Source: Alistipes senegalensis
Lineage (GTDB): Bacteria > Bacillota > Clostridia > Oscillospirales > Ruminococcaceae
Direction of reading: 5' to 3'
Assembly (NCBI GenBank): GCA_023665275.1
Contig: JAMPEF010000001.1
Span: 40,924 to 104,923 of the forward strand
Length of the DNA: 64,000 nt
Below are positions 4,323 to 39,626 of the stretch, one piece after another (position 1 is the stretch's first letter; the number at the start of each line of letters is the position of its first letter). The position numbers and the translations under genes are program-made. Under the pieces are notes generated by a model that saw nothing but the letters and a program-made list of their open reading frames with translations, searched no databases and was not told the DNA's origin.

Positions 4323-5510
4323 ATGAACCTTAATGATACCCCGTCCGGTGAAAGAGTTCATATTGGTTTTTTCGGAAAAAGAAACGTCGGAAAATCAAGT
4401 CTTGTCAATGCCGTGACAGGTCAGGAACTTTCTGTAGTATCTGATATAAAAGGTACTACTACAGACCCCGTATCAAAAGCTATGGAATTACTGCCACTCG
4501 GTGCGGTTGTGATTACTGATACCGCTGGTTATGACGATTCCGGAAAACTCGGTGAAATGCGTGTCCGGAAAACAAGACAGATTCTTAACAAAACTGATAT
4601 AGCTGTACTCGTCGTGGACAGCACAACAGGTATTTCCGATTCCGACAATGAACTTATTGAACTATTTAAAAATAAAAATATTCCGTATCTAATCGCCTAC
4701 AATAAATCCGATATTAAAAATGTTCCACGTGGAACAAATGAAATTTCCGTCAGTGCTGTGAATAAACATAACATTCATGAACTGAAAGAAAAAATAGCAA
4801 AACTTTATATTTCTGAAAATAAAAAATTTATCGTCAGAGATTTGATAAATCCGGAAGATGTTATTATACTTGTCACTCCGATAGACGCCGCCGCACCTAA
4901 AGGTCGTTTAATTCTGCCACAACAACAGACTATCCGTGATATTCTTGACTCCGATGCTATGGCTATCGTAACAAAAGAATTTCAGTTAGCTAAAACTCTT
5001 GAAAAATTCCCCACACCGAAAATGGTCATAACAGATAGTCAGGTATTCGGTTACGTCAGCAATATAGTTCCGGAAAATATCCCGCTTACATCGTTTTCCA
5101 TTCTGATGGCTCGTTACAAAGGATTCCTTGAAACAGCCGTAAAAGGTGCGTCGTCTATCCGGAATCTATGTGACGGTGATAAAGTTCTTATCTCTGAAGG
5201 CTGTACGCATCACAGGCAATGCGGTGACATCGGCAGTATTAAACTACCTGCTCTTCTGAAAAAATTTACAGGAAAAATTTTAAATATAGAATTATCCTCC
5301 GGAAGAGATTTTCCTGAAGATTTATCGGAATATAAATTAATTATCCATTGCGGTGGCTGTATGCTTAATCAACGTGAAGTGTCTTTCCGTATGAAATCTG
5401 CTACTGACCAGAACATACCATTTACAAATTACGGAATTGCTATAGCTCTTATGAACGGCATTTTAAAAAGAAGTATTGAAATTTTTCCCGATATGGTGAA
5501 TCTGATATGA
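4323..5510 (+). CDS. hydF: [FeFe]-hydrogenase H-cluster maturation GTPase HydF
   Basis: GFFGKRNVGKSSLVNAVTG P-loop, DTAG, and NKSD GTPase motifs. About 395 aa with a Cys-containing C-terminal domain (CTHHRQCGD ... HCGGC) typical of HydF. Contains an intragenic parS-like palindrome at 4721-4736. Confidence 0.8.
   Translation: MNLNDTPSGERVHIGFFGKRNVGKSSLVNAVTGQELSVVSDIKGTTTDPVSKAMELLPLGAVVITDTAGYDDSGKLGEMRVRKTRQILNKTDIAVLVVDSTTGISDSDNELIELFKNKNIPYLIAYNKSDIKNVPRGTNEISVSAVNKHNIHELKEKIAKLYISENKKFIVRDLINPEDVIILVTPIDAAAPKGRLILPQQQTIRDILDSDAMAIVTKEFQLAKTLEKFPTPKMVITDSQVFGYVSNIVPENIPLTSFSILMARYKGFLETAVKGASSIRNLCDGDKVLISEGCTHHRQCGDIGSIKLPALLKKFTGKILNIELSSGRDFPEDLSEYKLIIHCGGCMLNQREVSFRMKSATDQNIPFTNYGIAIALMNGILKRSIEIFPDMVNLI
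4721..4736. promoter_or_regulatory. Intragenic parS-like perfect palindrome TGTTCCACGTGGAACA inside hydF (encodes NVPRGT)
   Basis: Exact 16-mer identical to the array repeat core. Flanks AA..AA give 18/20 of the 20-mer AATGTTCCACGTGGAACATT. Confidence 0.5.
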
Positions 5511-9036: not shown

Positions 9037-9049
9037 TATAATTTCTGTG

Positions 9050-9300
9050 TAAATTGTTCCATGTGGAACATTTTGTGTTTGTCGGTGCGGATTGTTCCAC
9101 GTGGAACATTTTGTGTTCGTTGGTGCGGATTGTTCCACGTGGAACATTTTGTGTTTGTCGGTGAGGATTGTTCCACGTGGAACATTTTATGTTTGTCGGT
9201 GAGGATTGTTCCACGTGGGACATTTTGTGTTTGTCGGTGCGGATTGTTCTACGTGGAACATTTTGTGTTCGTTGGTGCGGATTGTTCCACGTGGAACATT
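9050..9300. repeat. Tandem array 1: 7 copies of parS-like palindrome TGTTCCACGTGGAACA, period about 38 bp
   Basis: 16-mers start at 9056, 9094, 9132, 9170, 9208, 9246, 9284. Four are perfect. Three carry single central changes: CATGTG, CACGTGGG, TACGTG. Spacer GTGTTYGTYGGTGMGGAT is homogeneous. ORF-track ORFs 9014..9349 and 9061..9324 are repeat artefacts. Confidence 0.9.
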
Positions 9301-9354
9301 TTAAAATTTCCAGTAATATTATAAAATCTCCGTGAAATAATATTATCAAGCAAA

Positions 9355-9374
9355 TTGTTCCACGTGGAACATTA
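9355..9374. promoter_or_regulatory. Solitary parS-like palindrome immediately upstream of the spoVAD RBS
   Basis: ATTGTTCCACGTGGAACATT at 9355-9374. The spoVAD GGGAGG RBS starts 3 nt later. Confidence 0.55.
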
Positions 9375-12167: not shown

Positions 12168-12244
12168 GGCGGCATAGCTCAGTTGGCTAGAGTACTCGGT
12201 TCATACCCGATTGGTCGTTGGTTCAAATCCTACTGCCGCTACCA
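12168..12244 (+). tRNA. tRNA-Met (anticodon CAT); could alternatively be tRNA-Ile2 (lysidine) or initiator
   Basis: Cloverleaf folded by hand: acceptor GGCGGCA/TGCCGCT, D-arm GCTCAGTTGGCTAGAGT, anticodon loop TTCATAC, T-arm GGTTCAAATCC, encoded CCA. Confidence 0.75.
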
Positions 12245-12252
12245 TTTAACAA

Positions 12253-12324
12253 GGCCCGTTGGTCAAGCGGTTAAGACATCGCCCTTTCACGGCGGAATCA
12301 TGGGTTCGATTCCCGTACGGGTCA
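12253..12324 (+). tRNA. tRNA-Glu (anticodon TTC)
   Basis: GGCCCGTTGGTCAAGCGGTTAAGACATCGCCCTTTCACGGCGG...GGGTTCGATTCCCGTACGGGTCA. Anticodon loop CTTTCAC. Typical tRNA-Glu sequence. ORF-track ORFs 12183..12371 and the 5' part of 12259..12840 are artefacts over these tRNAs. Confidence 0.85.
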
Positions 12325-12332
12325 CTTCAAAA

Positions 12333-12840: not shown

Positions 12841-12904
12841 AATATTGACTTTAATTAAAGCAACTGTTATAACAAATTATAAAATAGTAATAAGGAGTTT
12901 TATA

Positions 12905-13939
12905 ATGAATATGCTTGACAAATACAAAGGTTGTCTTATCGGAGGTGCCGTCGGAGACGCACTCGGATATATTGTGGAATTTTTTCCTGAAAAGAAAATT
13001 TTCGGTCATTATGGTGAAAATGGTATAATAGAATACGAACTCAGAAATAACAAGGCAATTATATCAGATGATACTCAAATGACGCTTTTTACTGCAAACG
13101 GTCTTTTACTTGGTGCAAAAGACGGGTCATACATTCACTCAATATACGATTGTTATAAAGAATGGTTTGTAACTCAAAACTGTGAGTACAAAATAAAATT
13201 AAAATACCGTTCATGGCTTGTGGACATTCCGGAATTATGGGAACGACGTGCGCCAGGCTTTACGTGTATTAGTGCTATTTCTTCTGGTAAAATGGGTTCT
13301 GTAAGAAATCCCATAAACGACAGTAAAGGTTGTGGCGGTGTAATGCGTGTTGCACCTATTGGACTTTTCTTTAAGGATATAAGCAAAATATCACAAACTG
13401 ATATGATTGCAGCGGAAGCCTCTGCCATTACTCACGGTCACGAACTCGGCTATATACCATCTGCATGTTTCGTACATATTATAAACCTTATTTCACATAG
13501 TGATATTCCACTTAAAGATGCAGTTTCTGAAAGCATTTCCCATACAAAAAAACTTTTTAAAAATTGCAAACATATAGATTATTTCTGTCAACTTATGAAT
13601 AAAGCCTTGAAACTTTCCAGACAAAATATCAATGACCTTGACGCAATTCATGAACTTGGTGAAGGCTGGGTTGCAGAAGAAACTCTTTCTATAGCAGTTT
13701 ATTGTGCCTTGAAGTATGAAAATAACTTTGAAAAAGCTATTATTACATCTGTAAACCACAACGGCGACAGCGATTCTACTGGTGCAGTAACTGGAAATAT
13801 ACTCGGTTCTTATCTCGGAATGAATGCTATTCCTGAAAAATTCCTTGAAAATCTTGAAATTAAAGATGTTATTTCTGAAATTGCCTGTGACCTTTATAAT
13901 TATACACCCGAAAATATAAACCCTAAATATCTAAAATAA
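12905..13939 (+). CDS. ADP-ribosylglycohydrolase family protein (DraG/ARH-like)
   Basis: MNMLDKYKGCLIGGAVGDALGYIVEF and DDTQMTLFTANGLL are ARH-family N-terminal signatures. C-terminal Asp-rich NHNGDSDSTGAVTGNILG (metal site). TAAGGAG RBS. Confidence 0.8.
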   Translation: MNMLDKYKGCLIGGAVGDALGYIVEFFPEKKIFGHYGENGIIEYELRNNKAIISDDTQMTLFTANGLLLGAKDGSYIHSIYDCYKEWFVTQNCEYKIKLKYRSWLVDIPELWERRAPGFTCISAISSGKMGSVRNPINDSKGCGGVMRVAPIGLFFKDISKISQTDMIAAEASAITHGHELGYIPSACFVHIINLISHSDIPLKDAVSESISHTKKLFKNCKHIDYFCQLMNKALKLSRQNINDLDAIHELGEGWVAEETLSIAVYCALKYENNFEKAIITSVNHNGDSDSTGAVTGNILGSYLGMNAIPEKFLENLEIKDVISEIACDLYNYTPENINPKYLK

Positions 13940-13940
13940 A

Positions 13941-14288
13941 AATGTTCCACGTGGAACATTTTCAGGTTTTATACAAGCTGATTGTTCCACGTGGAACATT
14001 TTTCAAGTTTCGTACAAGCTGATTGTTCTACGTGGAACATTTTTCAAGTTTCGTACAGACCGATTGTTCCATGTGGAACATTTTTCAAGTTTCATACAGA
14101 CTGATTGTTCCACGTGGAACATTTTTCAAGTTTCGTACAGACCAATTGTTCCATGTGGAACATTTTTCAAGTTTCATACAGACTGATTGTTCCACGTGGA
14201 ACATTTTTCAAGTTTCGTACAGACTGATTGTTCCGCGTGGAACATTTTTCAAGTTTCGTACAAACCGATTGTTCCATGTGGAACATTT
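13941..14288. repeat. Tandem array 2: 9 copies of parS-like palindrome, period 41 bp
   Basis: 16-mers start at 13943, 13983, 14024, 14065, 14106, 14147, 14188, 14229, 14270. Four are perfect. The others have single central changes (TACGTG, CATGTG x3, CGCGTG). Spacer TTTTCAAGTTTCRTACAGACYGAT. ORF 14023..14367 is an artefact. Confidence 0.9.
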
Positions 14289-14366
14289 TATTTTTTCATT
14301 ACGTAATGAAAGGAATATTATTTTATTTTCCGGCATATTATTCTATGATATTTTGGAGGTGATGTA

Positions 14367-16415
14367 ATGGAAAACAATAAATATATTGTAGCACTTGCCG
14401 GAAATCCCAATGTTGGAAAGTCAACGGTATTTAATGCCCTAACAGGCATGAATCAGCATACTGGAAACTGGGCAGGGAAAACTGTTTCAAGTGCAGAAGG
14501 ATTCTTTGAATACAAAGATATGCATTTCACACTTGCGGATATTCCAGGAATGTATTCACTCCGCAACAGTTCCGCAGAAGAAACTACTGCAAGCGATTTC
14601 ATTTATTTTACGGAAACTGATGCTATTATTGTAGTATGTGATGCAACTTGTCTTGAAAGAAATCTAAATCTTGTCATACAAATAACAGAAGTATCTCCAA
14701 AAACTATAGTATGTGTAAATCTTCTTGACGAGGCGAGCGCAAAAGGCATAACCATAGACCTTGATTTATTAAGTCAGATTTTAGGCGTACACGTCGTGGG
14801 CATCACAGCACGTGACGGAAAAGGTCTTGACAAACTTCTTGAATGTCTTTACAACTGCATAAAAGAAGACGCATTACCAGTAAAGCTTCAACTTCCCCTG
14901 AATGACGACATAAAAAACGCCATAACAGATATTTCCCGTATAATAGAAAAAGATATACATAAACTTCCGCCGGAAACTGTCGCAATGCATATACTTGAAA
15001 ACAATACATCTTTCCTTGAAAAAACAGAAAAATATGAAAATATCCATTTTTCAGAGTTTCCGGAAATAGATAAAATAAAATATTCCATGCAAGAAAAAGG
15101 TTTCACGACAGAAAAAATATCTGACGAAATTATTTCCGCAACTATTAAAAAGGCTGCTGAAATTGTTGCAACAACTGTAAGTTATAAAAAATCCTCACCA
15201 TACGTCCGTGACCGTAAACTTGACAGAATATTTCTAAGCAGACGTGCAGGAATACCTGTAATGATTATTCTTTTCGGACTTATATTATGGATTACAATTG
15301 TCGGCGCTAACTATCCGTCGGATTTACTGGGAAAACTTCTTTTCGGACTTGGTGACATAATGTCTAAGGGACTTGCAAAAATAAACGCACCTGAATGGCT
15401 TGATGGTGTACTGATTCAGGGTATATATAAAGTTCTTGCATGGGTAGTATCCGTAATGCTGCCACCTATGGCGATATTTTTTCCTATGTTCACACTTCTG
15501 GAAGATTTAGGGTATCTGCCGAGAATAGCTTTCAATCTTGACCATTGTTTCCGATGTGCAAACGCTTGTGGAAAACAAGCCATAACTATGGCTATGGGAT
15601 TTGGTTGTAATGCTTGCGGAGTTACAGGGTGTCGGATTATAGATTCTCCACGTGAAAGACTTATTGCTATAATAACAAATAGTTTTGTTCCATGTAACGG
15701 ACGTTTTCCGACTATTATTATGATAATTACTATGTTTATTGTAATGTCCGGAAGTTTTCTGTCAACATTGATTCTGCTTGCTGTAATAATAGCCGGTGTT
15801 CTAATGACTCTTGTAATGTCGAAACTTCTTTCATGTACAATACTTAAAGGTGTGGCATCGTCGTTCACACTGGAGCTTCCACCATATCGTAAACCACAAT
15901 TCACAAAAGTACTTATACGTTCAATTTTCGACCGGACTATATTTGTACTTGCACGTGCATGTACTGCCGCTGCTCCGTGCGGACTTCTTATATGGATTTT
16001 TGCTAATGTCCATGTCGGAAATGGTACAATTCTATCTGTTGTTGCAGATTTCCTTAATCCTTTTGCCTGCCTTATGGGACTTGACGGTGTAATATTACTT
16101 GCCTTTATACTGGGATTTCCGGCAAATGAAATAGTATTCCCCATCATACTTATGACATATCTTGCACAGGGAAGCCTTGTCGAAATGTCAGATACTGTAC
16201 AGATTCATGAACTTCTAAAAGAACACGGCTGGAATATCACTACTGCCGTATGTATGATGATTTTCACACTTTTTCACTTTCCGTGTGCGACTACCTGTAT
16301 GACCATAAAAAAAGAAACAGGCAGTCTCAGATGGACTGCCCTAAGTTTTTTACTTCCTACCATTACAGGAATAGTTCTTTGTATGATTGTAAATGCTGTA
16401 AGTATGTTATTTTAG
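14367..16415 (+). CDS. feoB: Ferrous iron transport protein B
   Basis: 682 aa. N-terminal G-domain ALAGNPNVGKSTVFNALTG, followed by polytopic membrane domains with the GCNACG gate motif. No feoA ORF upstream; the repeat array sits there instead. Confidence 0.9.
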   Translation: MENNKYIVALAGNPNVGKSTVFNALTGMNQHTGNWAGKTVSSAEGFFEYKDMHFTLADIPGMYSLRNSSAEETTASDFIYFTETDAIIVVCDATCLERNLNLVIQITEVSPKTIVCVNLLDEASAKGITIDLDLLSQILGVHVVGITARDGKGLDKLLECLYNCIKEDALPVKLQLPLNDDIKNAITDISRIIEKDIHKLPPETVAMHILENNTSFLEKTEKYENIHFSEFPEIDKIKYSMQEKGFTTEKISDEIISATIKKAAEIVATTVSYKKSSPYVRDRKLDRIFLSRRAGIPVMIILFGLILWITIVGANYPSDLLGKLLFGLGDIMSKGLAKINAPEWLDGVLIQGIYKVLAWVVSVMLPPMAIFFPMFTLLEDLGYLPRIAFNLDHCFRCANACGKQAITMAMGFGCNACGVTGCRIIDSPRERLIAIITNSFVPCNGRFPTIIMIITMFIVMSGSFLSTLILLAVIIAGVLMTLVMSKLLSCTILKGVASSFTLELPPYRKPQFTKVLIRSIFDRTIFVLARACTAAAPCGLLIWIFANVHVGNGTILSVVADFLNPFACLMGLDGVILLAFILGFPANEIVFPIILMTYLAQGSLVEMSDTVQIHELLKEHGWNITTAVCMMIFTLFHFPCATTCMTIKKETGSLRWTALSFLLPTITGIVLCMIVNAVSMLF

Positions 16416-17701: not shown

Positions 17702-20293
17702 TTATTTTTTAGTAGCTACCTTGCGTATCATGTCAATCGGAATAACCATGAATGCAAGTACAATACAGATTAACCATGTCTTTATATTAAGTGGTTCAAC
17801 GCTAAGGAACTCACCACCAAACGTTACAAATACAAACTGTATCAGTAGCAATGCACCCATTACAATAAGGAAATTTTTATTTCTGCCTAAATGTTCAAAT
17901 ACGTTGATTTTTTCTGTACGTGCATTGAAACCATTAAATGTGATAGCCATCATGAACGTTGCAAAAAGTGCTGAACACAGATACGTATCGTCTACATCAC
18001 CAAAAATGTCACGCAGTGCCGGAACAAAACGTATACAGAGACAAAGTGCTGTAATATAAAGTCCGCTGATTACAAACTGCATCATCATTGACTTGCTGAC
18101 AATACTTTCATTACGTGGAATAGGTCTGTCTTTCATGTACTCCTTAAGCGCCGGCTCACTACCAAATGCAATAGCAGCGAGCGTATCCATAGCGAGATTT
18201 ACGAGAAGTAACTGAATAACTGTCATCATTGTAGGCTCACCAAGAAGCGGACCTATGAAACATGTCAGAACTGCCGCAACATTTACTGTAAGCTGGAATA
18301 TAAGGAACTTTCTTATACCTTTAAACATTGTACGTCCGTAAAGAATGGCTTTCGCAATTGAAGAGAAGTTATCATCAAGAATAGTTATATCGCCTGCCTC
18401 TTTAGCAACTTCCGTACCACTACCCATAGCAAATCCGACATCTGCTTTTTTAAGTGCCGGAGAATCGTTTACACCGTCGCCTGTCATACCTACTACGTAA
18501 TCAAGTTCCTGTGCGCAACGTACAAGACGACTCTTGTCAGTCGGCAACGCACGGGCAACAACTCTTAAATTAGGAATAACTTTTTTAAGTTCTTCGTCTG
18601 TCTTTTCATTAAGTTCAGCAGAAGTAAGTGCAACATCTTCCGGATTTCTGATAAGTCCTGCTTCCTTTGCAATAGCAACAGCAGTTTCCTTACGGTCGCC
18701 GGTAACCATTACAACCTGAATGCCGGCGTTCTGAACTTCCTTGATAGCATCAACCGCCTCTTTACGTACATTGTCTCTAATACAAAGAATACATACAAGC
18801 GTAAGGTCACCTTCATCACTGACACCATCACGCTTTGCAACGGCAAGAAGTCGCATTGAACGTCCTGCCTGTTCATCGATATATTTTGTTATTTCCTTGT
18901 GATTATTGAGAACGTTTATATTTCCGTTAGCGTCAACATACTGTGTACATCTCACAAGAAGTTTTTCAGGTGCACCCTTTACGTAAGTATAACTTGCACC
19001 ATTTCTTGAAATAGTAACACTGGACATCTTTTGTGTAGAATTGAATGGATTGAAGTTTGTAGCCTCGTCCTTGTTGATTTTGTTTTCTGCCTTGGCATCA
19101 ATCAGGAAATTCATTAAAGCACGGTCAGTACTATTACCACCGATAACGTTTCCATCACTTGCGGCGGCACTGTTATTAACGCCAGCACCTACAACAATAT
19201 CATCTATGAACTTTTCCGATGTATCAGAAAGTTTTGAAAATTTCTTTACATCACCTGTGATAAATTCAACTACTGAAAGTTTACCCTCTGTGATAGTACC
19301 TGTCTTGTCGCTATAAAGAAGGCTGAGACTTCCAGCAGTTTCAAGACCGTTTATCTTTCTTACAAGTACGTTGTCTTTTGACATCTTAAGGCTCTGGAAT
19401 GAAAGCAGTATAGATGTAAGCATCGGAAGACCTTCCGGAACTGCACATACTATGATAGTAACCGCTACTGTGATAGCATTCATTATAACCTTAATCCAGC
19501 CTATTGCAGAATCAGGTGCACCGTCGCCGATAACAGTCTGTAATATAGTACAGATGATAATTGCAACAGCTCCGATATATCCAAACATTGAAATCTGTTT
19601 TGCAAGTTTGGAAAGTTTAACCTGTAAAGGAGTTTCACGTGTATCTTCCTGAACTTCAAGGGCAAGCTCACCGAAAAGCGTCTTATCACCAACAACTTTT
19701 ACTTCCATATAAGCCTCACCACCGCATACGACTGTACCACGATAAGCATAATGTTTATTGAGCAGGTCTTTTATGTCGTATTTTTCGCCGGAATTTACAG
19801 GATGTTTTTCTGCCTCTTCGGTTTCGCCGTTTAGTGCCGCCTGGTCTACTTTTACTTCACCCTCGACAATTTCGCCATCTGCTGCAATTTTGTCGCCTGC
19901 CTGAAGATAGATAATATCCCCTACAACAACTTCGCTGACATGGATTTCACAAAGCTTGCCATCACGGATAACTTTAGCCATTTCCTTGGATTCTTCTTCT
20001 TCTTTGAGTGCAGAGGCTTTATTTTCCTGTTTATGTTCGCTGATTGAGGAAACACCATTTGCAATTAGTATCGCAATAAGAACACCAACCGGCTCGAACC
20101 ACTCCGCCTGACCCATAAAACATAATACAACCTGTACTACAAGTGCAACGATAAGAATCATAATCATAGGGTCTTTAAAACCTTCAAGAATTTTTTTCCA
20201 TAATGGGTCGGGGGGAATCTGAGTAAGATTATTGTCGCCATGTTTTTTACGACTTTCTTCAACCTCTTTTTTTGACAGTCCATTAAGATTCAT
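17702..20293 (-). CDS. Calcium-translocating P-type ATPase (second copy in window)
   Basis: DKTGTITEG, TGDGVNDSPALKKADVG, PEGLP. Start taken at MNLNG (ATG 20293, AAGGAG RBS) rather than the ORF-track start at 20428. Confidence 0.85.
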   Translation of the reverse strand: MNLNGLSKKEVEESRKKHGDNNLTQIPPDPLWKKILEGFKDPMIMILIVALVVQVVLCFMGQAEWFEPVGVLIAILIANGVSSISEHKQENKASALKEEEESKEMAKVIRDGKLCEIHVSEVVVGDIIYLQAGDKIAADGEIVEGEVKVDQAALNGETEEAEKHPVNSGEKYDIKDLLNKHYAYRGTVVCGGEAYMEVKVVGDKTLFGELALEVQEDTRETPLQVKLSKLAKQISMFGYIGAVAIIICTILQTVIGDGAPDSAIGWIKVIMNAITVAVTIIVCAVPEGLPMLTSILLSFQSLKMSKDNVLVRKINGLETAGSLSLLYSDKTGTITEGKLSVVEFITGDVKKFSKLSDTSEKFIDDIVVGAGVNNSAAASDGNVIGGNSTDRALMNFLIDAKAENKINKDEATNFNPFNSTQKMSSVTISRNGASYTYVKGAPEKLLVRCTQYVDANGNINVLNNHKEITKYIDEQAGRSMRLLAVAKRDGVSDEGDLTLVCILCIRDNVRKEAVDAIKEVQNAGIQVVMVTGDRKETAVAIAKEAGLIRNPEDVALTSAELNEKTDEELKKVIPNLRVVARALPTDKSRLVRCAQELDYVVGMTGDGVNDSPALKKADVGFAMGSGTEVAKEAGDITILDDNFSSIAKAILYGRTMFKGIRKFLIFQLTVNVAAVLTCFIGPLLGEPTMMTVIQLLLVNLAMDTLAAIAFGSEPALKEYMKDRPIPRNESIVSKSMMMQFVISGLYITALCLCIRFVPALRDIFGDVDDTYLCSALFATFMMAITFNGFNARTEKINVFEHLGRNKNFLIVMGALLLIQFVFVTFGGEFLSVEPLNIKTWLICIVLAFMVIPIDMIRKVATKK

Positions 20294-20557: not shown

Positions 20558-20577
20558 AATGTTCCACATGGAACATT
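20558..20577. promoter_or_regulatory. Degenerate parS-like site (AATGTTCCACATGGAACATT) in the shared upstream region of the ATPase operon and fprA
   Basis: One central transition (CACGTG to CACATG) breaks the palindrome. Confidence 0.4.
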
Positions 20578-21910: not shown

Positions 21911-21930
21911 AATGTTCCACGTGGAACATT
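21911..21930. promoter_or_regulatory. Solitary perfect 20-bp palindrome AATGTTCCACGTGGAACATT (parS-like) 13 bp after the fprA stop
   Basis: Exact 20-mer that is its own reverse complement. Confidence 0.55.
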
Positions 21931-24012: not shown

Positions 24013-24864
24013 TTATTCATAGTCCTTTGCGAGTTTTTCAGCAATTGTTTTCAAATCGTCCTTATCATAAAATTCAAGGACGAGCGAACCTTTTTCTCCG
24101 CTATGTTTCACCTTGACTTTACGTCCGAGACGCATATTTAATGCAATTTCCATTTCAGCAAAATAATTGTCGGCCATATCCCGTTCATGTTCTTTCTGAA
24201 ATGCATTGTCTCTTTTATGTATTTCATTTTCAAGCTGACGTACAGTCATTTTACCGTCGGAAGCCCTTTCAGCAAGTTCAGTAAGAAATTTTACATCTTC
24301 AATCACTGCAAGCAGTGCTTTTGCATGACCAATCGACAGACTGCCTGTTTCAAGCATATATAGCACCGTATCCGGAAGTGAAAGTATTCTTACAGCATTT
24401 GCAATTGCAGACCTTGAACGCCCTACCATTTTTGCGATTTGTTCCTGTGTCATTCCGTATTTTTCAATAAGGTCACAGTAACCGTTAGCTTCTTCAACCG
24501 GATTAAGATTCTCTCTTTGAAGATTTTCTATAACTGCAATCTGCATAGCCTGTATATCGGAAAGTTCACGTATATTAACCGGTACTTCATCAAGACCGAG
24601 CATTCTTGCGGCTCTCCAGCGTCTTTCGCCGGCGACAATCTGATAACCACCAATCGACAAAGGTCTGACAAGTATCGGCTGTAACATACCATGTTCACGG
24701 ATAGACGCCGCAAGAGACGTTATTGCCTCTTCACTGAAAACTTTTCGTGGTTGGTCACGATTAGGTTCTATTTCAGAAGTCCTTAATGTTTTTTTTACTT
24801 GTATTTCGCTTGTATTGTCACTGAAAAGACTATCAAGCCCAGCACCAAGCCCACCTATAGCCAT
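24013..24864 (-). CDS. spo0J: Chromosome partitioning protein ParB/Spo0J
   Basis: 283 aa. GERRWRAA ParB box. HTH MTQEQIAKMVGRSRSAIAN. Genomic context soj-spo0J. Confidence 0.9.
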   Translation of the reverse strand: MAIGGLGAGLDSLFSDNTSEIQVKKTLRTSEIEPNRDQPRKVFSEEAITSLAASIREHGMLQPILVRPLSIGGYQIVAGERRWRAARMLGLDEVPVNIRELSDIQAMQIAVIENLQRENLNPVEEANGYCDLIEKYGMTQEQIAKMVGRSRSAIANAVRILSLPDTVLYMLETGSLSIGHAKALLAVIEDVKFLTELAERASDGKMTVRQLENEIHKRDNAFQKEHERDMADNYFAEMEIALNMRLGRKVKVKHSGEKGSLVLEFYDKDDLKTIAEKLAKDYE

Positions 24865-24884: not shown

Positions 24885-25694
24885 TTATTTCTTGTTGAAT
24901 GAAAAAATTCCCCTGAGTTTTTTCTTCGGGAGTTCGAGAGGCTCACCGAGAAGTTCATGTCCAAGAAGTTCATAAGCCTCCGCACCCTTTGAAGACTTGT
25001 CATAATACATAACAGGCTTGCCATGACTTGGTGCTTCTGAAAGACGTACATTTCTTGGTATCTTTGTTTTGAAAATTTTATCAGGGAAATACTTTTCCAC
25101 TTCTGCAACTACATCATTGGCGACATTAAGTCTTCCATCAAACATAGTGAAAACAATTCCCTCAATATTAAGTACGGGATTATAATTCGTCTTAACAATC
25201 TTTATCGTATTGACAAGCTGTGAAAGTCCTTCCAGTGCGAAAAACTCTGCAAGCATCGGGACTATCACCGTATCACATGCAACGAGTGCATTTATTGTGA
25301 TAAGACCAAGTGCCGGTGGACAGTCAATAAATATATAATCATAGTCTTCACGACAAGTAAGCGTCTGCATTTTTAGACGTTTCATTCTGTTCTCAAAGTT
25401 TATAAGTTCTATTTCGCAACCGGCAAGAGATTCTGTAGCCGGAACTATTGATACATTGCTGAAATCAGTTCCTATAACAGCATCCTGAATCCTTATTTTA
25501 CCAGTCAAGACATCATATGTCGAGGCACTGGCGGACTTTTTCTTAACCCCAAAAGCAGTAGTAGTATTGCCTTGCGGGTCTGAATCAATACAAAGAACCT
25601 TAAATCCCCTTGAACCAAGATAAGCAGCAAGATTTACGGCTGTAGTAGATTTTCCGACGCCGCCTTTTTGATTTGCCACTGCAATTATTTTGCC
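24885..25694 (-). CDS. soj: Chromosome partitioning ATPase ParA/Soj
   Basis: MGKIIAVANQKGGVGKSTT deviant Walker A. Start set at MGKII (25694). The ORF-track start at 25715 is over-extended. Confidence 0.9.
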   Translation of the reverse strand, partial: GKIIAVANQKGGVGKSTTAVNLAAYLGSRGFKVLCIDSDPQGNTTTAFGVKKKSASASTYDVLTGKIRIQDAVIGTDFSNVSIVPATESLAGCEIELINFENRMKRLKMQTLTCREDYDYIFIDCPPALGLITINALVACDTVIVPMLAEFFALEGLSQLVNTIKIVKTNYNPVLNIEGIVFTMFDGRLNVANDVVAEVEKYFPDKIFKTKIPRNVRLSEAPSHGKPVMYYDKSSKGAEAYELLGHELLGEPLELPKKKLRGIFSFNKK

Positions 25695-25788
25695 CATGGT
25701 ATTCATTCCTTTCATTTTTTATATTTAATATTATAGCACCTTTTAAACGCTTTGTAAATAGTAGTTGTACAATTTTTATACTTATCCG

Positions 25789-26270
25789 AATGTTCCACGT
25801 GGAACATTTTCATGGCACAGACTTTTTATTCTTAATTGTTCCACGTGGAACATTTTTCATGCACAGACTTTTTATTCTTAATTGTTCCACGTGGAACATT
25901 TTCATGGCACAGACTTTTTATTCTTAATTGTTCCACGTGGAACATTTTCATGGCACAGACTTTTTATTCTTAATTGTTCCACGTGGAACATTTTTCATGA
26001 CACAGACTTTTTATTTCTGATTGTTCCACGTGGAACATTTTTCATGCACAGACTTTTTATTCTTAATTGTTCCACGTGGAACATTTTCATGGCACAGACT
26101 TTTTATTCTTAATTGTTCCACGTGGAACATTTTCATGGCACAGACTTTTTATTCTTAATTGTTCCACGTGGAACATTTTTCATGACACAGACTTTTTATT
26201 TCTGATTGTTCCACGTGGAACATTTTCATGACACAGACTTTTTATTCTTAATTGTTCCACGTGGAACATT
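25789..26270. repeat. Tandem array 3: 11 perfect copies of parS-like palindrome, period about 46 bp, filling the soj-noc intergenic region
   Basis: 16-mers start at 25791, 25837, 25883, 25928, 25974, 26021, 26067, 26113, 26159, 26206, 26252. All are exact TGTTCCACGTGGAACA. Spacer TTTTCATGRCACAGACTTTTTATTYYTRAT. ORFs 25673..25927 and 25882..26112 are artefacts. Confidence 0.9.
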
Positions 26271-26311: not shown

Positions 26312-27127
26312 TCATTTTGCTTTCTGAACAGGGATTCTAATTCGATATTCTATGTAGTCATGATGCTGAATTTTCTGTGAATCTGCCGGAATACCAGCCA
26401 ACTGCATCGTTTCCACGGTCTTATTTATGGTATTAATAAATATTTTCACATTCTGAAAAACTTTTGAACGTTTTTTATAGTTTGTCTTTTCACGTTGAGA
26501 GCCGATAAAATCCTCAATAAGTTTTTCAGTACGTTCAACATTAAGATTATCCTTGACGATTTTTTCAAGGATAACAAGTCTGTCTGGTGGACTTGCCAGT
26601 TTAAGTAAAGCTCTTGCATGACGTTCAGTAAGTCCAAACTTTCCTATTAGTTCACGTTCTTCAGGAGTAAGACGCAGAAGACGTAATTTATTGGCTATAG
26701 TACTTTGTGCCTTACCGAGTTTAGCGGCTGCATCTTCCTGTGTCAAGCCATAATATGTAATAAGTCTTTCGATAGCCGCCGCCTCGTCAAAGAAAGATAA
26801 GTCCTGACATTTAATATTTTCGACAAGCGCAATAATAGCAGAATCCCTGTCATTGACTTCATGTATGATACACGGAACTGATTTCAGCCCACATATTTCA
26901 GCAGCCTTTAGATATTTTTCACCTTTAATAAGTTCAAAAACCTCACCGCATCTTTTCACGATCAACGGCTGTAAAACACCGTTTTTCATGACTGATTCTG
27001 CAAGTACTGAAATTTCCGTATCCTGAAAATCCGGATTCGGTTTATTCTGGTCAAGAACAATCATATTTATATCAATCTCAACCACTTTACTGATGAGTTT
27101 TTCTTTTGTAAAATTTAAAAGTGCCAT
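26312..27127 (-). CDS. noc: Nucleoid occlusion protein / second ParB-family paralog
   Basis: 271 aa ParB-like. HTH LTQEDAAAKLGKAQSTIANKLRLL. Position between rsmG and soj matches noc synteny in Firmicutes. Confidence 0.7.
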   Translation of the reverse strand: MALLNFTKEKLISKVVEIDINMIVLDQNKPNPDFQDTEISVLAESVMKNGVLQPLIVKRCGEVFELIKGEKYLKAAEICGLKSVPCIIHEVNDRDSAIIALVENIKCQDLSFFDEAAAIERLITYYGLTQEDAAAKLGKAQSTIANKLRLLRLTPEERELIGKFGLTERHARALLKLASPPDRLVILEKIVKDNLNVERTEKLIEDFIGSQREKTNYKKRSKVFQNVKIFINTINKTVETMQLAGIPADSQKIQHHDYIEYRIRIPVQKAK

Positions 27128-29864: not shown

Positions 29865-29884
29865 AATGTTCCACGTGGAACATT
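29865..29884. promoter_or_regulatory. Solitary perfect 20-bp parS-like palindrome in the 33-bp mnmE-mnmG spacer (overlaps the mnmE stop codon)
   Basis: AATGTTCCACGTGGAACATT exact. Confidence 0.55.
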
Positions 29885-34926: not shown

Positions 34927-35072
34927 ATTTACAGGAAAGAATTGCTTTTTTTATTGTTTCCTACCGGAACTGAATACAGGTCAGCCGGAGCGGAAAAATA
35001 TACATGAAAACTGTATTTTTTTACGTCTTACCCGGAACAGCTCCGGAAATATCATTAATACGGAGGGAAAAT

Positions 35073-36431
35073 ATGAAATCAACGGAATCATTTGAGGAAG
35101 TCTTTGAAAATGTAAAAGAATACTGCCTTGAAAATAACAAGATTCCCGCAATTGGTCTGAATACATGGATAGCCCCCTTAAGACCTGTAAGCCTTGAGGG
35201 CACAGAGGCACGTTTTAAAATTCAAACGGCGTTTCAACGTGACCTCGTAAAAGAAACTTACGGCAAAATACTTAAAGATGCTTTAAAAGTCATTCTCGGC
35301 TATGAAGTGGAAATGATTATTGATGTTGAACCAAGAAACGCACAGGCTGTTTCTATGAATTTTTATGACCCTGAAAGCAAAAATTCTGAATTTTCAAAAT
35401 ATGAATATACGTTTGATACATTCGTGGAGGGTCGTTCAAATGAATTTGCAGTAGCCTGTTGTAAATCTGTGGCAAAAAACTGCGGTGAAACGCCTGTCCC
35501 TGAATATAATCCGCTGTTTATATATGGTGCTTCAGGTATGGGAAAAACTCACCTTATAACCGCAATTTTAAATGCAGTCCGTGAAAAACACCCTGAATTT
35601 AAAATAATCTACATGACCAGTGAAAATTTTGGAAATGAATTTGTAAAGGCACTTACCGCCAAACGTATGGCGGATTTTCATGAAAAATACCGCTCAACTG
35701 ACTTATTTATTATTGAAGATATACAGTTCTTTATCGGAAAAGAACGAATGCAGGAAGAACTCTTTCATACATTCCATAAACTGCATCAGGAGTGCAAGCA
35801 GATTATAATGACATCTGATAAAGCACCGAAAGAACTGCAAAATCTTGATATACGTCTTTTGACAAGACTTGAAGGCGGTCTTATAGCTGACGTTTCCGCA
35901 CCTGACTATGAAACAAGACTCGCTATAATCAACAGAAAATCAGAACTGCTTGACCTTAAACTTTCCATAGAAGTGGCGGAATTTATAGCAAACCGTCTGA
36001 AATCCAACATAAGACAACTGGAAGGCGCTGTTATGCGCCTGAAAGCACTGAATCACTTCTCCGGAAGTCCCATAACCATATCAATGGCACAGGGAGTTAT
36101 TCGGGACGTTCTAACAAATGAACAGCCAACACCAATAACGGTTGAAAAGATAATTACGGAAGTTTCAGGGGTTTACGGCGTATCTCCGGACGATTTGCGC
36201 TCAAATAAGCGTGCGTCGCAAGTTTCAATAGCAAGAAAAGTGGCTATATATATAATCCGTGCGATAACACAAATGCCACTTGCCGCCATAGGTGAGGAAT
36301 TTGGCGGAAGAGACCACTCAACTATTGTATATTCCATAACAAGCATTACCGAATCTATGAAAAAAGACCCTAATCTTAATAATCTTGTGACAAATATAAT
36401 CAATAACATAAAAGAAAAAAGTAAACTATAG
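35073..36431 (+). CDS. dnaA: Chromosomal replication initiator protein DnaA
   Basis: AAA+ Walker A GASGMGKTHL. C-terminal DNA-binding domain VAIYIIRAITQMPLAAIGEEFGGRDHSTIVYS. Start at MKSTESF (GGAGGG RBS). The ORF-track start at 35004 is over-extended. Confidence 0.95.
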   Translation: MKSTESFEEVFENVKEYCLENNKIPAIGLNTWIAPLRPVSLEGTEARFKIQTAFQRDLVKETYGKILKDALKVILGYEVEMIIDVEPRNAQAVSMNFYDPESKNSEFSKYEYTFDTFVEGRSNEFAVACCKSVAKNCGETPVPEYNPLFIYGASGMGKTHLITAILNAVREKHPEFKIIYMTSENFGNEFVKALTAKRMADFHEKYRSTDLFIIEDIQFFIGKERMQEELFHTFHKLHQECKQIIMTSDKAPKELQNLDIRLLTRLEGGLIADVSAPDYETRLAIINRKSELLDLKLSIEVAEFIANRLKSNIRQLEGAVMRLKALNHFSGSPITISMAQGVIRDVLTNEQPTPITVEKIITEVSGVYGVSPDDLRSNKRASQVSIARKVAIYIIRAITQMPLAAIGEEFGGRDHSTIVYSITSITESMKKDPNLNNLVTNIINNIKEKSKL

Positions 36432-38525
36432 TTCGAAATATGAACACTGAAATCCTGCAAGGAAAATTTTTCACCGGAAAACAATGCATTTATTTTAATA
36501 ATATAGCAAATAATATAATATCTAATATAATATTTAGTGCTTAAACTTTTATTTAAGATATATCTTAATCTTATTTTTTAAATAATATCTTTTATAAGGT
36601 TTGTGCAAATTTACCAAATGGCATTTTTGGCAAAATCGAAAATTTCTGTTAACCATATGCAACATTTTGTAAATAAATTGTAAATAATTATAATTTTTAT
36701 TTAAGTTACAAAAAATTAATACGAATTTTTTTTGTGTACTTTTACTAAAAATTTTTGATGTTTTTATAAAAATAACCTGTTTTTACAAGCTTGTGTAAAT
36801 CTGAATAACGATTTATGCAAAAGAAAATACATAATTTTTATAGATTTATTTTTAACTATTAAACAGATATATTTTATATATTTAATATTTTTTAGGCTTA
36901 AAACAGAAATAAATCAGCAGTAATAAGTTTTAATTAATTATTTTTTGTTTATATTTATGAATTGGATATAATTTTTAATATTTAAAAAACTTGGGTATAC
37001 AATTTGACGGAAAAAATCAGCATTGGCTTCCGGAAAAAATGAAAGTTTGTTCTTAAATTTCTTTAAGAAGTTCCCATCTGGAGTGAAAAAAGTGTGAATT
37101 TGGCTTTTTTTAAAAAATATTGCTATTTTCAATAAAAAATATAACATAACTGTATTTTCCGACAGAAACCGAGAATTTCAAGCAGATTTTAAAATTCTCA
37201 GTAAATATAATAACTCTCAAATTTCCTTTAAAACTGGCATTTATTCAAGATAAATTCATATAAATATACAACAGTCTATTTATTAATAAATTATTAATTG
37301 CCGGCTTTACTCTACAGAAAAACCACAAAATTTTCTGAAAGTTCAAAAAACTTAAATAAAAAGTTTTAATTTATTTTTTTGAAATCCAGTTTTTGAAGTA
37401 AAAAAATTACAATTTTATGGAAATCCTAAAAAATTTACCTTGATTTTTTAGCTGTTTACATGGAAAAAATAATTTATTAAAACTTTAATTTAAGTAAATA
37501 ATTTTCCAATTGTTAACCATAGTTAACATATGAACAAATTATTAAGGGTTCAGATGAACCGATTTGGAATTGTTATTTATTTTAATTTTTATTTTTTATG
37601 ACTTTATTATTAAATTTTTATTTATTTTTAGTTAATTTATAAAAAATATAAATAAATTATCCCATTAAAAATCACTAAATATAGCTACAAAAAATAAGTA
37701 AATAAATATAACTTTCTTTTTATGATGATTTAGTGTTTAAATTGTGAAATTATCAATTATGAACTAAATATGTATTTTTTATGAACAATTGCCGTAACGA
37801 AAAATAGCCAAAAAATCGATATCAACTACCTCTTAAATGCCGTTTTTGTGTAATAAATCACGAAAAAACGTTACATGGCAATATGCACAAACAACTTTTG
37901 TGAAAATTAAATTTTAGGCTTAATATAGCGGTTTTTTAAGATACAATATTTTTAAAGAGTACTTTTGTTCTCTGAAAAACGTTGTTTTATAACGATTTTC
38001 GGCATAAACGAATATTCTTTAAAATTTTTAATATTTAAAAAATACCGTTCATAATTTAGACATAATCAGAATATACGTTCTGTTTTGGTCGGAAAAAGAT
38101 AAAAAATTCATGTTATCCCTCGCCTGTTTTTGCCTAAATATAGGTAAAATCAGGTAGACATTGAACGAAATAACAATATACCAAAAGTTTTCAACAAAAA
38201 GAACGTAAGTTCTCAAAATTTTGTTAGATTAATGTTTGCTTTTTGATTTTCACAGTTCCAACACAAAACATGTTTCACTATCAACAGTTTATCAACATTA
38301 ATTTTGTTGAATTATCTATACAAAATATAGCCGTAAAACAAAACTTTCAACTTTTTATTCTCACTTAATTAAGAGTACTAATTTATTATTTATTTATTAT
38401 TTACGCGCCGCTAAAAAAATTCTGAAAAACAAAAAATTTGCAATTCTTGATTTTCAGAATCAAAAAATCAAAAAAAAATTATTATCAATTGTTACCAAAT
38501 TATGAATACAGGAGGAATTTTCAAA
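36432..38525. other. About 2.1-kb ORF-free, extremely AT-rich dnaA-dnaN spacer (putative extended oriC / DNA-unwinding region)
   Basis: No ORF of 60 aa or more apart from an RBS-less 69-aa antisense ORF. Only degenerate DnaA-box-like 9-mers found by eye (TTATCAACA about 38290, TTATCCCTC about 38113). GTTAAC inverted repeat at 37511-37528. Confidence 0.4.
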
Positions 38526-39626
38526 ATGAAATTCATTTGTAACAAATCAGAACTTTGTGAAGCTATCAGCAATGTTTCAAGAGCTGTATCTCCAAAGTCA
38601 GCTATTCCAGCACTTGAAGGAATTAAAGTCAAAGTTTCACCAAACGAAATTGAACTTATAGGATATAATCTTGAAATGGGTATCCGTACGGCTATTAATT
38701 CCATAACAGAAGATTCAGGAGAGTTTGTCGTAAGTGCAAGACTATTCAATGAATTTACAAAACGTATGTCAGGTGACGAAATTAATTTTGAGGTTAATGA
38801 AAATCTTGTAATCAATATTTCATGCAGTTCTACAGAATGTAGTTTTTCTGCAATGTCAGCAGAAGAATATCCGGACTTACCAGCAGTAGATTCTGAAAAT
38901 ACTTTCACTGTAAAAAATTCAGTTCTGAAATCCATGATTAATCAGACAAGTTATGCGGCATCTCTTAATGAAAGCAAACCAATTCTTACAGGCGAATTAT
39001 TCGACATTGCAGATGAAAAATTCAATATGGTTGCAATTGATGGTTTCAGACTTGCAATAAGAAGTGAAACTATAAATAATTCCGGAAAATATCAGTTTGT
39101 AGTTCCTAAAAAAGCTCTGCTTGAATTATCTTCCCTTATAAAAGATGACAGTGACTGCATTATTCATACAAACGAAAGACACATAATATTTGAAACAGGA
39201 AATGTATTCATAATTTCAAGACTTTTAGAAGGAACTTTCCATAAATATAAATTAAGTATACCTGCCGACCACAAAACAGAAATTATTATCAGTAAACGTG
39301 AATTTCTTACAGGTCTGGAAAGATGTTCACTGATTATTGATGAAAAAAATAAAACTCCCATTCACTGTGAGGCTGGTAAAGGTTTCGTAAATCTTAACTG
39401 CAAAACCGGAATAGGAAAAATAAGCGATTCAATAAAAGCTGACATTACAGGTGAAAATGTTATTATCGGATTTAACCATAAACTTATGGCTGATGCTGTA
39501 CGTGCAGCTGATGGTGATAAAATCCGCATACTTTTTAATGGCTCAAAAAAAGTTATAGAAATTCTTCCGCTTGAAAGTGAAAGCTTTATATTTCTCGTTA
39601 TGCCCATAAACCTCAAGAATTATTAA
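38526..39626 (+). CDS. dnaN: DNA polymerase III beta sliding clamp
   Basis: MKFICNKSELCEAISNVSRAV is a typical DnaN N-terminus. 366 aa. GGAGGA RBS. Confidence 0.9.
   Translation: MKFICNKSELCEAISNVSRAVSPKSAIPALEGIKVKVSPNEIELIGYNLEMGIRTAINSITEDSGEFVVSARLFNEFTKRMSGDEINFEVNENLVINISCSSTECSFSAMSAEEYPDLPAVDSENTFTVKNSVLKSMINQTSYAASLNESKPILTGELFDIADEKFNMVAIDGFRLAIRSETINNSGKYQFVVPKKALLELSSLIKDDSDCIIHTNERHIIFETGNVFIISRLLEGTFHKYKLSIPADHKTEIIISKREFLTGLERCSLIIDEKNKTPIHCEAGKGFVNLNCKTGIGKISDSIKADITGENVIIGFNHKLMADAVRAADGDKIRILFNGSKKVIEILPLESESFIFLVMPINLKNY

Follow-up and report, generated by a model that had tools for sequence, protein, structure and literature searches.

In other bacteria feoA often lies 5′ of feoB, and the first-pass annotation of the DNA analysed here, a 64,000-nt stretch hereafter called the window, expected feoA directly upstream of the feoB gene at 14367..16415 (+ strand). 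The interval is occupied instead by palindromic direct repeats, which raises the questions of what these repeats are, which protein would act on them and how they came to stand in front of feoB. Tandem Repeats Finder delimited a tandem array at 13943–14289 (period 41 bp, 8.5 copies, 91% matches, score 554), and a motif search resolved it into nine copies of a 16-bp palindrome at 13943..14285 (array 2), starting at 13943, 13983, 14024, 14065, 14106, 14147, 14188, 14229 and 14270. The start-to-start distance was 40 bp once and 41 bp throughout thereafter, each 41-bp unit consisting of the palindrome and a 25-bp spacer. These results bore out the earlier description of nine 41-bp copies directly upstream of feoB; the array is genuine, and its palindromic units are akin to those of the other arrays of the window. 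Four of the nine palindromes read exactly TGTTCCACGTGGAACA, and the remaining five carried one transition each. All five had been described as changed in the central CG dinucleotide, but this was true of only three (CATG; copies at 14065, 14147 and 14270), the other two being C6>T at 14024 and A7>G at 14229. Units 4 and 6 were identical, a likeness that hints at a two-unit duplication. The array filled 343 of the 427 bp between the feoB start codon and the stop codon of an ADP-ribosylglycohydrolase (ARH) gene (12845..13939, + strand), which is located 3 bp before the first palindrome; the description of this interval as consisting solely of iterons was correct for these 343 bp, but not for the last 81 bp (14286–14366), which are unique sequence. 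An independent assembly (GCA_023666785.1), in which the FeoB and ParB proteins of the window were both present as exact matches, contained a contig 100% identical over array 2, including all nine copies. Its 22-kb contig ended at ~12271 in window coordinates, inside a tRNA-Glu gene; the tRNA-Met (CAT) and tRNA-Glu (TTC) genes of the window lie within 12168–12325. A CRISPR array was rejected as an explanation of the repeats, the spacers themselves being repeated within each array.

The palindrome of array 2 was compared with the chromosomal partition site parS. The general parS consensus is TGTTTCACGTGAAACA, the form TGTTNCACGTGNAACA has been used by others to locate parS, and the consensus of Myxococcus xanthus, TGTTCCACGTGGAACG, is bound by ParB in vitro. 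The sequence TGTTCCACGTGGAACA differs from the M. xanthus consensus at one base and falls within TGTTNCACGTGNAACA; judged by this match, the core of array 2 is a canonical chromosomal parS. A search for the motif allowing three mismatches returned 32 sites in the window against 0.29 expected, a number that no shuffle reached, and all 32 matches were within one mismatch (23 exactly TGTTCCACGTGGAACA and nine with one transition). All of them were located between 4721 and 29882, a span of ~25 kb that lies 5–30 kb from dnaA on its parAB side, with no site found on the other side of dnaA in the 34 kb searched. Altogether 27 of the 32 sites belonged to three head-to-tail arrays. Besides array 2, these were array 1 (9055..9298), located between spoVAD and a P-type ATPase gene and made of seven tandem parS that recur every 38 bp, and array 3 (25791..26268), with eleven consensus parS at a 46–47-bp period between a noc-like gene and parA. 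The remaining five sites were single. A consensus site at 9356..9371 followed array 1 by 58 bp, just upstream of the spoVAD ribosome-binding site; further consensus sites lay inside an ORF (4323–5510) at 4721..4736, after a flavodoxin/ODP gene at 21913..21928, and between mnmG and trmE at 29867..29882, and one site with a single mismatch (CACATGG) lay at 20560..20575.

The three arrays could not be traced to one another through their spacers. A shared origin was not supported by global alignment, with scores no better than those of shuffles (529, 1985 and 1996 of 2000 reached the observed value), and the spacers of arrays 2 and 3 had only TTTTTCA and ACAGACT in common locally. Across the window and six related loci (L123, L124, L126 and L130–L132), 22 of 79 parS sites were variant, and all 25 substitutions in them were transitions. 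After folding onto one half-site, 22 of the 25 were C>T, and 12 fell in the central CpG, a pattern suggesting that the variants arise by cytosine deamination, possibly at methylated ACGT or CpG.

The window is a chromosomal replication-origin region, as indicated by its gene order, its GC-skew minimum and a stretch of 25% GC. One strand carries the genes rnpA-yidC-jag-trmE-mnmG-rsmG-noc-like-parA-parB and the other dnaA-dnaN-gyrB-gyrA. Pfam recognised ParB, ParA, a second, Noc-like ParB protein and RsmG on the former strand and DnaA (35004–36431, +) and DnaN on the latter, with rnpA, yidD and rpmH between the RsmG-side genes and dnaA. The cumulative GC skew reached its minimum at ~34–39 kb, and the 25%-GC intergenic stretch (36.5–38.4 kb) separates dnaA from dnaN; together, the segment at 35004..39626 (+ strand) and the skew minimum mark the replication origin. 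Matches to the E. coli-type DnaA box TTATCCACA with up to one mismatch remained at chance level throughout the window, the surroundings of dnaA and of the 25%-GC stretch not excepted, so the position of oriC was taken from gene order and skew only. Array 2 lies ~21 kb from dnaA and array 3 directly upstream of parA, and most bacteria are known to cluster their parS within 5–40 kb. A search of the window against Rfam returned only the two tRNAs and no match for the arrays. The presence of an array in front of feoB is explained by its parS identity and by its setting in the origin region, neither of which the first-pass annotation had recognised.

The window also encodes a partition system that could act on these sites. 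The parB gene (spo0J; 24013..24864, − strand) specifies a protein with ParB_N, HTH_ParB and ParB_C domains and the CTP motif GERRWRAA, the predicted binder of all parS, and is accompanied by parA (soj; 24885..25715, − strand), coding for the partition ATPase. The ParB protein scored 185.6 against the NCBIfam model TIGR00180 (cut-off 58.45) and could be aligned over ~190–210 residues with the solved ParB chains of Thermus thermophilus and M. xanthus, and it matched those of Caulobacter crescentus and Bacillus subtilis over similar spans, the DNA-binding segment of B. subtilis Spo0J aligning at the residue level. Arg and Gly were assigned to the positions equivalent to R173 and G201, which set parS binders apart from Noc; these positions were placed by pattern against the alignments and the Caulobacter sequence. 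The ParB of the window is therefore predicted to be a cognate and apparently competent parS binder. A paralogue encoded between rsmG and array 3 (26312..27127, − strand) resembles Noc. It carries Q, K, R and R at the specificity positions, as do proteins of the Noc/NBS type, has a degenerate CTP box (GEKYLKAA instead of GERRxRA) and remained below the NCBIfam cut-off for Noc (251 versus 315 bits); the B. subtilis consensus for the Noc-binding site (NBS) was not enriched in the window. This paralogue is probably not the parS binder.

Comparison with related genomes, in which the closest FeoB homologues were annotated as Ruminococcus sp. or R. flavefaciens, revealed how array 2 grew. The ARH–feoB spacer contained no parS in L127 (FeoB 79% identical to that of the window), one in L124 (86%), two located 40 bp apart in L126, an R. 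flavefaciens metagenome-assembled genome (83%), five at 41-bp distances in L123 (98%) and nine in the window, and the spacers were homologous among the two-, five- and nine-copy forms, that of L126 matching the window unit. This series shows that array 2 expanded in situ: a single pre-existing parS was duplicated together with its spacer. The position of array 1 was occupied by a single site in L124 and was empty in L126 and L127. Upstream of parA, two sites were found in L130 and L132, eight in L131 (48–50-bp period), ten in L123 and eleven in the window, and array 3 counted seven copies in GCA_023666785.1 and ten in GCA_029060965.1. Single sites were kept in position in L123, L124, L126 and L130–L132, including the site at 20560, which has counterparts in relatives, and the site between mnmG and trmE, which is retained in L131 and L132; the equivalent of the single site at 21913 has expanded in L124 to three or more tandem units of 47 bp, at the end of the contig. 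Array 2 had been described as older or more decayed than array 3. Its units are indeed more diverged (91% versus 94–97% matches), but the wording is misleading, since the relatives reveal a recent expansion of the feoB-proximal array from one site and the parA-proximal cluster as the ancestral one; the uniformity of array 3 more likely reflects recent turnover.

The arrays also left traces in the assemblies. Array 3 differed between the window (11 units) and an otherwise 99.9%-identical assembly (seven units; L122 4782–5074), many close homologues of the Noc-like protein were found on contigs of only 1–2 kb, and the L124 contig ended inside a parS array (18451–18592). Short-read assemblies thus appear to collapse or break at parS arrays near the origin. 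In addition, the arrays generate spurious ORFs, at 9014–9349 (−), 13982–14367 (+) and 25649–26228 (+), with the recurring peptides MFHVEHF, CSTWNI and VPRGT (read as ‘MFHVEHF...’ or ‘VPRGTFF...’), which could be annotated as hypothetical proteins. It is easy to take such arrays for iterons, for CRISPR-like repeats or for what is left of a gene.

A natural control was provided by a relative lacking both parAB and the sites. On the metagenomic contig ERZ14208452 NODE_105 (ENA; L129 1–20807 and L133 1–22049; FeoB 83% identical), seen in three samples, parA and parB were cleanly deleted, the noc-like gene being followed by a remnant of the parA promoter and then by serS. No parS was detected at up to four mismatches over ~31 kb of syntenic sequence, and the sole trace of a site in the ARH–feoB spacer of this contig was a relic half-site, ACGTGGAA, with TTTTTTTCATTAC after it. 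The loss of the sites together with parAB argues that ParB maintains them, and it argues against binding by the Noc-like protein and against a role as terminators or as regulators of neighbouring genes. A ParB may be encoded elsewhere in the genome of this relative, which is represented by a metagenome-assembled contig.

To see how widespread closely spaced parS are, we looked for three parS located 31–61 bp apart in a collection that has a single genome for each GTDB species. Such triplets were present in at least 120 species-level genomes of Actinobacteria (Collinsella), Firmicutes, Proteobacteria, Bacteroidota, Acidobacteriota and other phyla, usually immediately upstream of parA. Among the 120 loci of 8 kb listed, ParA was encoded in 79, ParB in 72 and RsmG in 71; most of these 120 loci had three sites, with five or more in eight and eight or more in two. 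The largest arrays among the matches listed were those of L040 (10 × 55 bp) and L025 (8 × 46–47 bp). In these two loci, and in L113, L058 and L012, the spacers were homologous, identifying true tandem repeats, which the Collinsella triplet was not. In Collinsella species (L003, L005–L007 and ~50 further loci), three parS lay between rsmG and parA with a spacing of exactly 39 bp, the spacers being unrelated in L003, the locus read in detail; if the spacers of the other Collinsella loci are also unrelated, recent duplication would not account for the fixed 39-bp geometry. The survey suggests that tandem parS arrays are widespread but unremarked in Firmicutes genomes. A metagenome scan returned no match to the array 2 spacer and, for the triple-site pattern of the lineage, one unrelated short contig. 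A plasmid or phage origin of array 2 was rejected, as blastn found no match to it in PLSDB (72,556 plasmid records) or in the INPHARED phage collection.

We then return to the neighbours of array 2 and to the missing feoA. The expectation of feoA at this position was not borne out by the relatives: the ARH gene was directly followed by feoB in seven syntenic Ruminococcus loci (eight with the source assembly, L121), with a spacer of 90–264 bp, and FeoA-family genes were absent from the gene lists of the seven loci and of the source assembly. As the relatives have the ARH–feoB order without feoA, a feoA gene was never to be expected at the position of array 2. At E ≤ 0.01, neither the two longest reading frames crossing the array (83 and 114 aa) nor 19 further small ORFs in the window matched FeoA (PF04023), and FeoB itself, which lies outside the partition system, has no fused FeoA domain. 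The 114-aa ORF over array 2 (14023–14367) contains IVPRGTFFKFRTD twice and has no Pfam match; since a period of 41 bp is not divisible by three, this ORF is a repeat artefact, as had been proposed. A test for an iron-responsive promoter with a Fur box between array 2 and feoB had been suggested; no match to the 7-1-7 consensus TGATAATNATTATCA was present at up to three mismatches in 13,900–14,400, and the window-wide counts equalled chance expectation.

The unique segment between array 2 and feoB (14286..14366, + strand) is a promoter or leader segment of feoB. It includes a perfect 16-bp palindrome, TTCATTACGTAATGAA (14295–14310), which is unique in the window, is also present in L123 and is partly retained (TTCATTAC) in L133; it could act as a weak hairpin (−12.8 kcal/mol together with the last parS, z −1.8) or as an operator. 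Just upstream of the feoB ribosome-binding site lies a direct repeat, GGAATATTATT ... GGCATATTATT (14313–14344; GGMATATTATT twice), kept in L123, L124, L126 and L127 and represented by one copy in L133. This repeat, which differs from the Fur box consensus, is a candidate feoB promoter or operator. The last copy of array 2 ends 8 bp before the predicted −35 element of the only promoter-like site in front of feoB; therefore, occupancy of the array by ParB could modulate feoB transcription as a plausible side effect. At the other end, the first copy forms a 10–12-bp hairpin flanked by T runs on both strands, which folds at −12.6 to −13.4 kcal/mol (z about −4.7) on either strand, and would plausibly, again as a side effect, make a good bidirectional terminator for the ARH gene.

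Taken together, these results make it very probable that array 2 represents nine ParB-bound chromosomal parS forming part of a 32-site centromere zone of ~25 kb beside the replication origin of a rumen Ruminococcus of the R. flavefaciens group. Most likely, the array serves ParB as a loading platform and reached its size by tandem duplication, a reading in which the steps involving ParB, CTP, ParA and SMC are taken from established ParABS biology and the tandem growth from our comparison of relatives. By analogy, resident ParB dimers would recognise each 16-bp palindrome through their helix-turn-helix domain, and, on binding CTP, ParB would close to form a clamp able to move off parS and slide along the flanking DNA. 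As the clamp vacates parS, each additional site would serve as an independent loading point, and an array would multiply the local loading flux. The resulting ParB-dense domain would be moved by ParA and would recruit SMC. The arrays arose in place, by repeated duplication of the unit of site and spacer through slippage or unequal exchange, so that even close strains have different numbers of copies. On this reading, the location of array 2 next to feoB is incidental, because a permissive intergenic spacer there already contained a parS. The periods of the arrays (38, 41, 46, 48–50 and 55 bp) share no common helical phase, an observation more in keeping with loading sites that act independently than with a phased, cooperative structure.

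Other explanations of the array were weighed against this reading. The copies could be genuine parS of which those beyond the first add nothing, copy number drifting neutrally because a direct repeat of 38–46 bp is recombination-prone. Such drift would account for the differences between near-identical assemblies (11 versus 7 copies in array 3, 9 versus 5 in array 2), for the transitions accumulated by array 2 copies and for the expansion of different sites in different lineages, and it agrees with a 2020 review according to which a single parS is often sufficient for segregation. It accounts less well for growth to 7–11 copies that took place independently at least four times in the Ruminococcus group, or for the expansions in unrelated Firmicutes (the 10 × 55-bp and 8 × 46–47-bp arrays of L040 and L025, and those of L113 and L058). 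The cores of array 3 are perfect in all 11 copies, whereas its spacers vary, which suggests selection on the cores or very recent turnover, and all sites vanish when parAB is lost; we therefore regard neutral drift as possible but somewhat doubtful. That the palindromes serve as an operator or insulator, at which iron uptake is controlled by ParB in the role of a repressor or by a transcription factor, seems unlikely. The idea draws on the proximity of the last copy to the −35 element of feoB and on the ability of ParB-family proteins to silence genes flanking their sites, as described in the same review. However, the same palindrome is arrayed before spoVAD and parA and occurs singly beside unrelated genes, the interval has no Fur box, relatives with 0–2 sites keep the same promoter-proximal motifs of feoB, and the relative devoid of parAB retains feoB without any site.

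It is highly improbable that the repeats are REP- or MITE-like extragenic palindromes or terminator hairpins unrelated to partition, even though nine terminator-like matches were counted in the array 2 region against 0.5 expected, the first copy folds stably on both strands and the strong ARH terminator hairpin of L124, L126 and L127 is missing in the window. The internal copies form only weak hairpins (−7.1 kcal/mol, z −0.9), no Rfam family matched, and the motif, which within the window is confined to the origin-proximal 25 kb, is identical to parS, co-occurs with parAB across phyla and was lost together with parAB. There is equally little to recommend the Noc-like paralogue as the protein that binds the sites in place of ParB: its gene directly flanks the largest array and its product has a ParB-type helix-turn-helix domain, but its specificity residues are of the Noc/NBS type, those of the parS type (Arg and Gly) being found in ParB, and the relative that has the noc-like gene without parAB has no parS. 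Finally, the 114-aa ORF spanning array 2 and the frequent occurrence of feoA before feoB elsewhere might be read as signs of decayed feoA or other coding sequence, or the repeats might be an artefact of assembly. We give this next to no credence, given the period that is not a multiple of three, the lack of a Pfam match and of feoA in the seven syntenic loci and the source assembly, and the recovery of all nine copies base for base in an independent assembly.

The features of chromosomal parS that were borne out here are the palindrome, the location near the origin, the cognate ParB and ParA, and the evolutionary dependence on ParB. The sites share their 16-bp palindrome with the parS of B. 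subtilis spo0J (TGTTNCACGTGAAACA) and with the Pseudomonas/Myxococcus form (TGTTCCACGTGGAAC), and, like chromosomal parS in general, they are proximal to the origin and clustered within tens of kilobases, with parA and parB among them and with a ParB that has the CTP motif and parS-type recognition residues. In described chromosomes parS are dispersed single sites with unrelated flanks, whereas in the window 27 of 32 belong to arrays in which the spacers are repeated too, and the total of 32 exceeds the 20–23 given in the 2020 review as the upper range. The same review names the causes of variation in parS number and of parS clustering as open questions. For one lineage, our comparison points to in-place tandem duplication of site and spacer, with stages of 0, 1, 2, 5 and 9 copies preserved. 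A bolder reading is that tandem parS arrays are a fast-evolving, selectable control on centromere strength, in which gain and loss of units would tune the loading of ParB, and through it of SMC and ParA/Soj, at the origin, Ruminococcus lineages amplifying different sites independently and the arrays collapsing upon loss of parAB. We advance it as a speculation that we think rather less likely to hold than not by a wide measure; if true, the ParB-dense arrays at feoB, spoVAD and parA would couple the expression of these genes to ParB occupancy.

No account of tandem parS arrays occurring naturally on a chromosome was found in the open-access full-text literature searched. The densest chromosomal cluster found there is that of M. 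xanthus, with 22 parS in ~3 kb located ~4 kb upstream of parA. It resembles the window in its dense, near-identical parS, but forms one cluster with a mean spacing of ~140 bp, in contrast to the 38–46-bp periods and the three arrays located up to ~16 kb from parAB in the window, for which comparison documents a structure of tandem units and their stepwise growth. Short parS triplets, such as the three sites of Collinsella at 39-bp spacing, share both the motif and the preferred position of array 3 between rsmG/noc and parA, and, judging from the survey, a triplet upstream of parA is the ancestral state of array 3. They differ in having mostly three sites, arrays of at least eight units with homologous spacers being present in only two of the 120 loci listed. 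In architecture, the closest counterpart is sopC of plasmid F. There, a 43-bp unit is directly repeated 12 times, and every unit contains a 16-bp inverted repeat to which SopB binds; the arrays of the window, with 7–11 direct repeats of 38–46 bp and one 16-bp palindrome in each, are almost identical in this respect. However, sopC has its own motif and its own binder and forms one array on a plasmid, while the arrays of the window are chromosomal and combine chromosomal parS with a ParB of the chromosomal type; because motif and binder differ, the location is chromosomal and no plasmid matched, array 2 would work like sopC without belonging to the sopC family. From these comparisons, array 2 is best described as parS, an element of a known kind, whose tandem arrangement is unusual in being expanded and in evolving rapidly, and the sopC-like architecture known from plasmids recurs on chromosomes with chromosomal parS.
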